A DNA stretch of 64,000 bases from Escherichia coli (lineage in GTDB: Bacteria; Pseudomonadota; Gammaproteobacteria; Enterobacterales; Enterobacteriaceae): the NCBI RefSeq assembly GCF_051903065.1, contig NZ_CP178438.1. One strand, given 5' to 3'. The translations under genes and the position numbers were made by a program. Shown here in pieces: positions 19,715-20,479 of the stretch; position 1 is the stretch's first letter; the number at the start of each line of letters is the position of its first letter. The notes under the pieces are model-generated. The model made no database searches. It saw only the letters and a program-made list of their open reading frames with translations, and had not been told where the DNA came from.

Positions 19715-19847
19715 TGGTGCATCCGGGAGGATGACTCACTGGCGTTCGCCCTTCGGGCCGTTGCTAAAGCAACGTTATCCTTCCTGGTGCCTGCGGTTAA
19801 TTCCGCTACCTCTTCGATATCTTCATTGCTGAAGATTTCGGAGAATA
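19715..19847 (-). repeat. Spacer repeat carrying a tRNA-Arg 3'-end pseudo-fragment (copy 1)
   Basis: Begins with tggtgcatccgggagga (reverse complement of the tRNA-Arg 3' terminus) then diverges; about 90% identical to copy at 19988..20122. Confidence 0.7.
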
Positions 19848-19924
19848 TGGTGCATCCGGGAGGATTCGAACCTCCGACCGCTCGGTTCGTAGCCGAGTAC
19901 TCTATCCAGCTGAGCTACGGATGC
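19848..19924 (-). tRNA. argQ: tRNA-Arg (anticodon ACG)
   Basis: 77 nt; reverse complement reads GCATCCGTAGCTCAGCTGGATAGAGTACTCGGCTACGAACCGAGCGGTCGGAGGTTCGAATCCTCCCGGATGCACCA. Confidence 0.95.
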
Positions 19925-19987
19925 ATCGGGAAAATTTATTTTACTGCTGATATTGATATCGCTACTAAAGCCATATCAAGTAAGAGA

Positions 19988-20122
19988 TGGTGCATCCGGG
20001 AGGATTACTCGCCTTGCGGCTCGCCCTTCGGGCCGTTGCTGGCGCAACGTTATCCTCCCTGGTGCCTGCGGTTAATTCCGCTACCTCTTCGATACCTTCA
20101 TTGCTGAAGATTTCGGAGAATA
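19988..20122 (-). repeat. Spacer repeat carrying a tRNA-Arg 3'-end pseudo-fragment (copy 2)
   Basis: Same architecture as 19715..19847. Confidence 0.7.
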
Positions 20123-20199
20123 TGGTGCATCCGGGAGGATTCGAACCTCCGACCGCTCGGTTCGTAGCCGAGTACTCTATCCAGCTGAGCTACGGATGC
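20123..20199 (-). tRNA. argZ: tRNA-Arg (anticodon ACG)
   Basis: Identical 77 nt tRNA-Arg copy. Confidence 0.95.
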
Positions 20200-20261
20200 A
20201 TCGGGAAATTTATTTTACTGCTGATATTGATACCGCTACTAAAGCTGTATCAAGTAAGAGA

Positions 20262-20338
20262 TGGTGCATCCGGGAGGATTCGAACCTCCGACCGCTCGGT
20301 TCGTAGCCGAGTACTCTATCCAGCTGAGCTACGGATGC
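20262..20338 (-). tRNA. argY: tRNA-Arg (anticodon ACG)
   Basis: Identical 77 nt tRNA-Arg copy. Confidence 0.95.
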
Positions 20339-20402
20339 ATCGGGAAACTTACTTTACTGCAGATTTTTTGATACCGCTACTAAAGCCGTATCAAGTAAGA
20401 GA

Positions 20403-20479
20403 TGGTGCATCCGGGAGGATTCGAACCTCCGACCGCTCGGTTCGTAGCCGAGTACTCTATCCAGCTGAGCTACGGATGC
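20403..20479 (-). tRNA. argV: tRNA-Arg (anticodon ACG)
   Basis: Identical 77 nt tRNA-Arg copy, 3 nt from serV. Confidence 0.95.

Follow-up and report, generated by a model that had tools for sequence, protein, structure and literature searches.

Long spacers of the Escherichia coli serV-argVYZQ operon as probable divergent, tRNA-Arg-linked relatives of RtT RNA

Introduction

Why does a transfer RNA (tRNA) operon carry, among identical tRNA genes, long spacers that end in a copy of the tRNA 3′ end? The question is raised by an array at positions 19715-20575, minus strand, of the window, which is the whole stretch of 64,000 nucleotides (nt) of Escherichia coli contig NZ_CP178438.1 analysed here. 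Gene calls and comparison with K-12 identify it as the csrA / serV-argVYZQ / yqaB tRNA operon. Transcript sense is the minus strand throughout the serV-arg array; T denotes a tRNA-Arg gene, S a short spacer and L a long spacer, and the array reads serV-T-S-T-S-T-L-S-T-L-trailer in transcript order. Its spacers are of two types, three S spacers of 62-64 nt and two L elements of 135 and 133 nt, and it is the L elements that need explaining.

The best explanation, held with a probability of roughly 0.6 for its three parts jointly, is that the L elements are divergent, tRNA-Arg-linked members of the RtT RNA family, that they are released as by-product RNAs, and that they are gained and lost by repeat-mediated recombination. 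The anatomy of L, its homology to RtT, its conservation across genera and its polymorphism in the population are established by the comparisons set out below.

Anatomy and fold of the L elements

The first-pass annotation had placed two spacer repeats at 19715-19847 and 19988-20122. Both coordinates hold and give a terminal L of 133 nt and an internal L of 135 nt, which differ at 11 of 135 aligned positions. It had also described the repeats as starting with the last 17 nt of tRNA-Arg. The tRNA 3′ end is indeed present, but in transcript sense it forms the end of each L and is 18-19 nt long (19 nt in the internal copy, AATCCTCCCGGATGCACCA, and 18 nt in the terminal one). A chance origin of the pair is excluded, since the window has two occurrences of a 28-nt core pattern for which 100 shuffles give an expectation of 0.00. 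Folded alone, the internal L reaches -59.9 kcal/mol (z = -6.5) and the terminal L -47.5 kcal/mol (z = -4.5).

Each L begins with a leader of about 58 nt containing two hairpins, A and B. The internal leader (20066..20122, minus strand) is seen in the fold, is genus-specific and corresponds to nothing in the RtT model; the terminal leader (19791..19847, minus strand) is recognized by fold and allele comparison. A domain of 78 nt ending in ACCA follows in the internal copy (19988..20065, minus strand) and one of 76 nt in the terminal copy (19715..19790, minus strand), the former delimited by its match to the RtT model, its fold and the core alignment, the latter by model match, fold and pair register. 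The internal domain is closed by a helix in which the upstream strand GCACCAGGGAGG pairs with the tRNA-derived tail CCUCC-CGGAUGC. When the acceptor 5′ strand (GCAUCCG) and the T-stem 5′ strand (GGAGG) of tRNA-Arg are fused, they agree with this upstream strand at 10 of 12 positions, and a predicted fold of -40.5 kcal/mol gives it 10 pairs out of 12 in the tRNA register. In place of the 7-nt T loop stand about 50 nt that form three hairpins, which in the internal L are H1 (CGUUGC/GCAACG), H2 (GCCC-GAA-GGGC) and H3 (GCC-GCAA-GGC). The terminal minihelix is weaker, with one more mismatch in the closing helix and H3 down to 2 base pairs.

Because the closing strands match the acceptor and T-stem strands and pair in the tRNA register, the L domain is modelled as a tRNA-Arg minihelix, with the acceptor stem stacked on the T stem, an ACCA end, and hairpins in place of the T loop. 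The earlier description of L as truncated tRNA 3′ fragments that diverge was right about the exact tRNA 3′ end and incomplete in the rest. Folding, which had been suggested as a check, shows the fragment base-paired with diverged acceptor and T-stem 5′ strands, and L is a conserved, strongly folding homologue of the RtT core and not a mere fragment. ARAGORN called only the five genuine tRNAs in the window and did not call the L elements as tRNA. A tRNA gene or pseudogene has a cloverleaf with D, anticodon and T arms; L keeps acceptor- and T-stem-like strands only. A coding role was considered and rejected, the only open reading frames (ORFs) of at least 25 amino acids being antisense or read-through frames across the tRNA array, with no tpr-like ORF among them.

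Relationship to RtT RNA

RtT RNA is described by the Rfam model RF00391, which has a gathering score of 45 bits, and the L elements match it only in permissive E-value scans. Within a 2.5-kb scan the internal L reaches 31.2 bits and the terminal L 22 bits; scanned on their own, they reach 34.8 bits (E = 1.4e-5) and 28.0 bits (E = 6.8e-4), respectively. The three L copies of K-12 score 22.8-31 bits, likewise below the gathering score, as do the tRNA-Arg-linked copies of Enterobacter, Brenneria and Pantoea (30-38 bits) and copies linked to 5S rRNA (30-34 bits), so that these forms lie below threshold in every genus scored. As positive controls, the K-12 tyrT-tyrV-rttR-tpr locus gives 133-138 bits for its four repeats, and copies linked to tRNA-Lys and tRNA-Pro score 70-95 bits. 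Since the latter score so highly, the curated family already covers several tRNA hosts.

The cmscan alignment of L covers only model positions ~46-130, with about 60 unrelated nt inserted. The shared part runs AACGUUGC-loop-GCAACGG-CCCGAAGGG-CGAG..hairpin..GAGUAAUCC and is followed by the tail, which in L is the Arg tRNA end AUCCUCCCGGAUGCACCA and not the Tyr tRNA end AUCCUUCCCCCACCACCA. L has the whole 3′ core by which RtT is recognized, that is, H1 (CGUUGC/GCAACG), H2 (CCC-GAA-GGG), a variable H3 and GAGUMAUCC. It also lies right after a tRNA and carries the 3′-terminal ~18 nt of that tRNA plus CCA, as do the copies with Tyr, Lys and Pro hosts. Judged by sequence, the L elements belong to the known RtT family as a compact and diverged variant linked to tRNA-Arg, unannotated so far because the Arg copies fall below the Rfam threshold.

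Relatives at other stable RNA genes

Relatives were sought with a 16-nt core, GCAACGNCCCGAAGGG, as an exact pattern in one genome per species. The search also returned many chance matches in unrelated phyla, and the taxonomic distribution of the core is a sample and no census. Among the matches listed for Enterobacterales, the same core lies downstream of several stable RNAs, each time with the tail of its own host: tRNA-Tyr in several genera (tail ATCCTTCCCCCACCACCA), tRNA-Lys(UUU) in many genera (ATCCTGCACGACCCACCA), tRNA-Pro in Pantoea, Gilliamella and Pseudescherichia (ATCCTCTCTCGCCGACCA), tRNA-Arg(ACG) in E. albertii, Enterobacter cloacae, Pantoea stewartii and Brenneria (ATCCTCCCGGATGCACCA), and 5S rRNA in several genera (AACTGCCAGGCAT). 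An alignment of 38 sequences shows that the core AACGUUGC-loop-GCAACGRCCCGAAGGG-hairpin-GAGUMAUCC is common to the Arg-, Tyr-, Lys-, Pro- and 5S-linked copies and has 22 invariant columns.

The Arg-linked element is carried by the same operon in E. albertii, Salmonella houtenae, Enterobacter cloacae, Pantoea stewartii and Brenneria. With the core as query, blastn likewise detected the Arg form in Salmonella houtenae, at the alaS-csrA-serV-arg-yqaB locus, and in Klebsiella. In a Salmonella Infantis record the tRNA-Pro-linked copies are annotated as "RtT RNA". The compact architecture of the Arg type (...GAAGGAUAACGUUGC) occurs in some Lys-linked copies too, namely in Pluralibacter and Pseudescherichia.

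Two further arrangements were observed among the relatives. Lys-linked copies can form tandem arrays with a period of ~156 nt in which a separate strong intrinsic terminator, GGCGCCCUAAAGGCGCCUUUUU, comes after every unit (loci L061, 348-1679, and L087, 1410-2501). Citrobacter werkmanii (L026, ~9290-9450) and Citrobacter sp. FP75 (L059, ~1510-1670) carry, upstream of tyrT-type genes, a near full-length tRNA-Tyr-like sequence with a mutated anticodon loop. In both, the RtT core is inserted in the T loop, between TTCGA and ATCC, which fits the minihelix and T-loop reading. These forms may represent an intermediate in the origin of the family.

Structural constraint and the case for neutral debris

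In a rival account the L elements are only debris, that is, functionless partial tRNA duplications left by unequal crossing-over and carried along in a highly expressed operon. Between genera, over three enterobacterial families, the Arg-linked core is 81-93% identical, whereas the leader has drifted to 46-70% and an S spacer to 70%. H3 is 100% paired in the 19 Arg-type copies from six genera, and its pairing has been kept although two of its three pairs have changed, in a compensatory way (A-U for G-C in 5 copies, G-C for C-G in 7). Across hosts, at least 10 different Watson-Crick stems occupy the H3 position. The fold z-scores of -4.5 to -6.5 and the retention of the same core beside five different stable RNAs also argue against debris. 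In the cross-host alignment the bases flanking H1 (columns 8 and 28) co-vary as A..G or G..A, giving AACGUUGC..GCAACGG in some copies and AGCGUUGC..GCAACGA in others. The pattern suggests either a conserved non-canonical A.G/G.A pair or linkage by lineage.

A number of results weigh against the reading of L as a constrained RtT relative, and some of them are what debris would leave behind. L falls short of the 45 bits required by RF00391, and the Rfam scan of the window at gathering thresholds reported no match on the L elements. The 5′ half of the model (positions 1-45, with a closing strand, a T-arm-like hairpin and the AGGUUCGA..GAGCG hairpin) has no equivalent in L. A literature search found no paper on the Arg spacer repeats or on RNAs derived from them. 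RNAalifold applied to the cross-host core returned the invariant H1 and H2 only, with no covariation signal. This invariance carries no information on structure, being partly an artefact of the exact core pattern that served to find the relatives and lies over these helices.

The closing helix fares less well than H3. In Arg copies its pairing amounts to 79%, two of its positions pair in no copy and there are no compensatory changes, and in an anchor-based count its 5′ strand forms 8.3 of 10 pairs with the tail of its own host and 7.2 of 10 with that of a foreign host, a weak discrimination. For this reason, cross-host covariation of the closing helix was dropped as evidence of selection, and the closing 5′ strand may simply have been inherited from the host tRNA and not selected to pair. 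In E. coli some copies are decaying, with internal deletions of 22 nt and 70 nt or with nothing left except hairpin A, and Salmonella houtenae has degenerate L copies. L is present or absent at every position of the 18 arrays decoded below, which speaks against a strong or position-specific function, and it contains no ORF. Set against the conservation of the core and the compensatory changes in H3, these observations leave neutral debris as an unlikely account, although it is the alternative that survives best.

Comparison with K-12

The start-to-start spacing of the tRNA-Arg genes is 275, 139 and 141 along the plus strand, as first reported, and thus 141/139/275 in transcript order. K-12 MG1655 has 275/139/275 in transcript order, the pattern that the first-pass annotation had given for it. 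Pairwise alignment, the check proposed at the time, confirms that the two differ. The window lacks one clean block of 134 nt, which is exactly the first L of K-12 (L1), and the breakpoint of the indel lies inside a shared 20-nt repeat, AATCCTCCCGGATGCACCAT. L1 stands between tRNA-Arg copy 1 and the first short spacer, S1, which is identical in the window and in K-12.

L1 differs from the second L of K-12 (L2) at 11 of 135 positions and is common to many strains, so that it is, to judge from the alignments, an old paralogue and no recent copy. Because L1 is not a recent duplicate, the allele of the window is most simply read as a loss. The first spacer of Enterobacter cloacae is also short, which tells against this direction of change and is compatible with a gain of L1 in the K-12 lineage. 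If L1 was lost, the event could have been a deletion between the 20-nt repeats; alternatively, a T-S donor could have served for gene conversion, with the 77-nt tRNA and the tail plus S (~83 nt) as homology arms.

Variation of the array among E. coli strains

A total of 5,426 complete E. coli genomes were searched with the unique flanks of the array only as query. Array length was then determined in 59 genomes sampled evenly down the ranking, and 18 arrays picked to represent the length classes were decoded. About 11 length classes were found. The K-12 form of 902-903 nt occurs in 24 genomes, lengths of 627-634 nt in 12, 1036-1041 nt in 8, 762-772 nt in 7 and 672-674 nt in 5; single cases measure 213, 471, 494, 610, 736 and 1433 nt. 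The 18 decoded arrays represent 17 arrangements, with 1, 3, 4, 5 or 9 tRNA-Arg genes and 0-4 L elements. Length had been considered as a stand-in for arrangement and was abandoned, since three different arrangements share a length of 768-769 nt. The 70-nt internal deletion of L lies between two GCACCA repeats, one decoded spacer of 102 nt retains only a variant of hairpin A, and in the enterotoxigenic E. coli strain H10407 and in LD91-1 the trailer is present without any L.

Alleles are constant within lineages, all K-12 derivatives having 902 nt and all O157:H7 strains 672 nt, and this consistency makes assembly artefacts unlikely as the main source of the variation. The longest series of genes is that of E. 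coli ECOCN22 (NZ_CP186528.1, 4866361-4869793), where nine tandem tRNA-Arg(ACG) genes compare with one in strain D1; nine were seen in a single assembly, and this array could be an assembly artefact. The array stretch of the window is 100% identical to that of E. coli ECNB21-M121 and 23CRST031, and its arrangement is found colinear and full-length in at least 57 complete genomes from varied sources. It is an established minority allele. Gain and loss of L elements is an ordinary and very common polymorphism of E. coli, of the kind expected for tandem repeats. The early proposals that a repeat had been gained or lost by unequal recombination, and that the fragments mark recombination history, are borne out in this respect, the first by the one-repeat difference from K-12 together with the hypervariability of the locus, the second by that hypervariability, which supports repeat-mediated recombination.

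Expression, turnover and possible role

Lying between the tRNA genes of one operon, the L elements would be transcribed within the polycistronic tRNA precursor. With ...GCACCA on an acceptor-like helix, their 3′ end would resemble the acceptor end of a tRNA, and for this reason the enzymes that finish tRNA 3′ ends would be expected to release and trim L at that point. As to the early idea that the fragments could be decoys for RNase P or RNase E processing, the modelled minihelix makes recognition by tRNA-end enzymes plausible, whereas the absence of L from any given position in natural strains means that tRNA processing needs no copy locally. A precedent is provided by the annotated rttR RNA of K-12, which has 171 nt and a 3′ end exactly at the pseudo-CCA end of the RF00391 match. 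The outcome would be a stable by-product RNA from L, any role of which would be dispensable at single positions. A cut by RNase P 5′ of the minihelix, should it occur, would free a species of ~78 nt. At the DNA level the array offers a ladder of direct repeats, consisting of six tRNA ends of 18-20 nt, the 77-nt tRNA genes and the S spacers of ~63 nt, and unequal recombination or gene conversion between the rungs would add and remove both tRNA genes and L elements. The hypervariability of the locus across E. coli makes repeat recombination the obvious mechanism.

A local role of L in tRNA processing is unlikely because natural strains lack it at any given position; a dosage-tolerant role in trans is possible, as is none. 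One such role would be that of a regulatory RNA or sponge, in which excised L, like the leuZ spacer RNA considered below or like rtT RNA, titrates small RNAs (sRNAs), processing enzymes or stringent-response factors. There is a precedent in the family, since Bosl and Kersten (1991), in the form in which PMC3318445, PMC4986893 and PMC7542023 cite them, reported that rtT RNA modulates the stringent response. RtT is characterized as a discrete stable RNA set free from its primary transcript, with an effect on the stringent response when overproduced. The stable fold and the free ACCA end predicted for the minihelix would suit a titrating RNA. The number of L copies ranges from 0 to 4 among healthy natural isolates, and the literature still calls the function of RtT unknown (PMC7542023, PMC4986893, bioRxiv 10.1101/2024.07.17.603846), both of which speak against this proposal and make it very unlikely.

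An origin as scars of a small integrating or mobile element that inserts in the T loop or 3′ part of stable RNA genes and duplicates the target 3′ end is the least probable account of all: an insert between direct repeats of a tRNA 3′ end is a classical integration signature (PMC9897764), the core follows tRNA-Tyr, -Lys, -Pro, -Arg and 5S rRNA, always with a host-specific tail, and in the two Citrobacter genomes it sits in the T loop of a nearly full-length tRNA-Tyr-like sequence, but no integrase or transposase is nearby, the array is flanked by csrA and yqaB, the insert is only ~115 nt long, the Arg copies are syntenic across genera, which indicates vertical descent, and in collection searches the 65-nt core was essentially absent from genuine phage and mobilisable plasmid records. 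What the search of the phage and plasmid collections did return with this core were only mislabelled chromosomal contigs or non-mobilisable records. The collections include Salmonella whole-genome shotgun contigs of 0.5-0.7 Mb and E. coli "plasmids" of 4.8-4.9 Mb, and because such records are chromosomal or chromosome-sized the matches are no sign of mobility.

The reading of L as a divergent RtT relative can be extended. One ancient module, made of H1-H3 in a minihelix of acceptor/T type with the exact 3′ end of the preceding stable RNA as its cap, might mark distal parts or spacers of many stable RNA operons of Enterobacterales and Pasteurellaceae and have a common function in 3′-end maturation, quality control or growth-rate and stringent signalling. 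Its hosts would be tRNA-Tyr, -Lys, -Pro, -Arg and -Asn and 5S rRNA, the rrnB T1-T2 interval included, and the Arg and 5S forms would be subfamilies missed by Rfam thresholds. For example, an uncharged CCA-ended minihelix could engage RNase P, RNase T/PH, the CCA-adding enzyme or RelA-type sensors. In this full form the proposal is speculative and quite unlikely to hold.

The more limited result has consequences of its own. The L elements, being sub-threshold, are unannotated in E. coli, Salmonella, Enterobacter, Pantoea and Brenneria. The serV-arg locus is a structural hot spot at which the dosage of tRNA-Arg(ACG) varies from 1 to 9 among complete E. coli genomes, a matter of relevance to tRNA pools, TadA editing substrates and strain engineering at this site. 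Counting the Arg- and 5S-linked copies as compact RtT relatives widens a family the function of which has been described as unknown since 1991, and the tRNA minihelix with a T-loop insertion offers a concrete structural model for it. If the L elements are neutral by-products, the finding is an ordinary one.

Other features of the locus and the window

The array has csrA/alaS upstream and yqaB/yqaA downstream. A putative sigma-70-like promoter, TTGACT and TAATAT with a 16-nt spacer, precedes serV at 20638..20665 (minus strand); it is a pattern match only, with 9 of 12 consensus positions. The first gene, tRNA-Ser(GCU) or serV (20483..20575, minus strand), was called by ARAGORN, scores 56.8 bits against the Rfam tRNA model and is identical to K-12 serV in the alignment. 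Four tRNA-Arg(ACG) genes follow on the minus strand, at 20403..20479 (copy 1, argV position, 67.1 bits), 20262..20338 (copy 2), 20123..20199 (copy 3) and 19848..19924 (copy 4, argQ position). Each is supported by ARAGORN and Rfam, and an exact-match search found all four to be identical in sequence, in agreement with the initial description of four identical tRNA-Arg(ACG) genes plus tRNA-Ser(GCU) on this strand.

The S spacers, also on the minus strand, are S1 (20339..20402, 64 nt), defined by K-12 alignment and fold, and S2 (20200..20261, 62 nt) and S3 (19925..19987, 63 nt), each defined by spacing, fold and allele comparison. S1 contains the small hairpin GAUACGG..CGGUAUC. The general form in S spacers is GAUAYGG..CGRUAUC, and at one stem position the E. 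coli alleles have C-G, U.G or U-A, apparently a compensatory series. The trailer of 147 nt (19568..19714, minus strand) extends to the yqaB start codon (19567) and contains a terminator-like hairpin, ACGCUAAAGUAGCGU then CAUAUUUUU (19594-19608, minus strand), identified as a pattern only by inspection of the sequence and a consensus scan.

At gathering thresholds the sole non-tRNA matches of the Rfam scan in the window are MicA sRNA (83.9 bits, 16866-16937, plus strand) and naRNA4 (73.5 bits, 8132-8209, plus strand), the latter a REP-type nucleoid-associated RNA. Sub-threshold "Plastid-ycf2" matches on the plus strand at 19848-20479 were rejected as spurious, an artefact of tRNA antisense symmetry, and psbI and microRNA matches opposite the tRNAs in the permissive scan were likewise set aside as spurious. 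The same symmetry artefact accounts for an antisense tRNA-Arg(tcg) called by ARAGORN in Enterobacter cloacae (locus L046, 3210-3282, minus strand).

Comparison with known systems

The closest known system is RtT itself, represented in E. coli by rttR and the 178-bp repeats distal to tyrT/tyrV. Like RtT, L lies in a tRNA operon just after a tRNA, ends in the last ~18-19 nt of that tRNA including CCA, and contains the core AACGUUGC-loop-GCAACGRCCCGAAGGG with a variable hairpin and GAGUMAUCC. Both have a closing helix formed by the tRNA-derived tail and an upstream complement, and both occur in tandem and in variable copy number (PMC7542023). The number of RtT copies differs, for example, between strains of Erwinia pyrifoliae (PMC7542023), and in Pasteurellaceae RtT elements adjoin Asn- and Lys-tRNA genes (PMC4986893). 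In contrast to RtT, L has unrelated hairpins A and B in place of the first ~45 model positions (the GGAUGAGAAccuuc T-arm-like hairpin and AGGUUCGAgucgAGCG), and its closing 5′ strand abuts H1 directly in the compact form also found in some Lys copies. The host of L is tRNA-Arg(ACG), no tpr-like ORF accompanies it, and it scores 22-35 bits.

Two other systems resemble L in part. Partial tRNA duplications at the integration sites of genomic islands and prophages likewise have a direct repeat of the tRNA 3′ end flanking an insert (PMC9897764). In an integrative element a recombinase or cargo lies between the full and the partial tRNA, whereas in L the two copies are 115 nt apart, the insert of ~115 nt is structured and non-coding with no recombinase, the neighbours are csrA, yqaB and yqaA, and the arrangement is syntenic across genera. 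The 3′ external transcribed spacer (3′ETS) of leuZ is an sRNA sponge, according to Lalaouna et al. (2015) as cited in PMC5909449. Like it, L would arise in the processing of a tRNA operon and might survive as an RNA; the two differ in that no sequence relationship between them is apparent, though none was tested.

The last comparison is with the rrnB operon. The interval between its terminators T1 and T2 is familiar from cloning vectors and widely used. In K-12 (NC_000913.3, 4171600-4172200, at locus positions ~262-328) this interval holds an H1-H2-H3 core of RtT type, behind which the last 13 nt of 5S rRNA (AACTGCCAGGCAT) are repeated. It differs from L in its host, 5S rRNA, in a tail that is not tRNA-like and in two flanking intrinsic terminators, and no convincing closing helix is predicted for the 5S form. 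In both, the H1-H2-H3 core (GAACGTTGCGAAGCAACGGCCCGGAGGG plus a hairpin) comes before a second copy of the 3′ end of the stable RNA that lies upstream. The part of these results most worth following up is this recurrence of a single core module that takes its cap from the 3′ end of the preceding stable RNA, whatever that RNA is, in the rrnB T1-T2 interval as in the serV-arg array.

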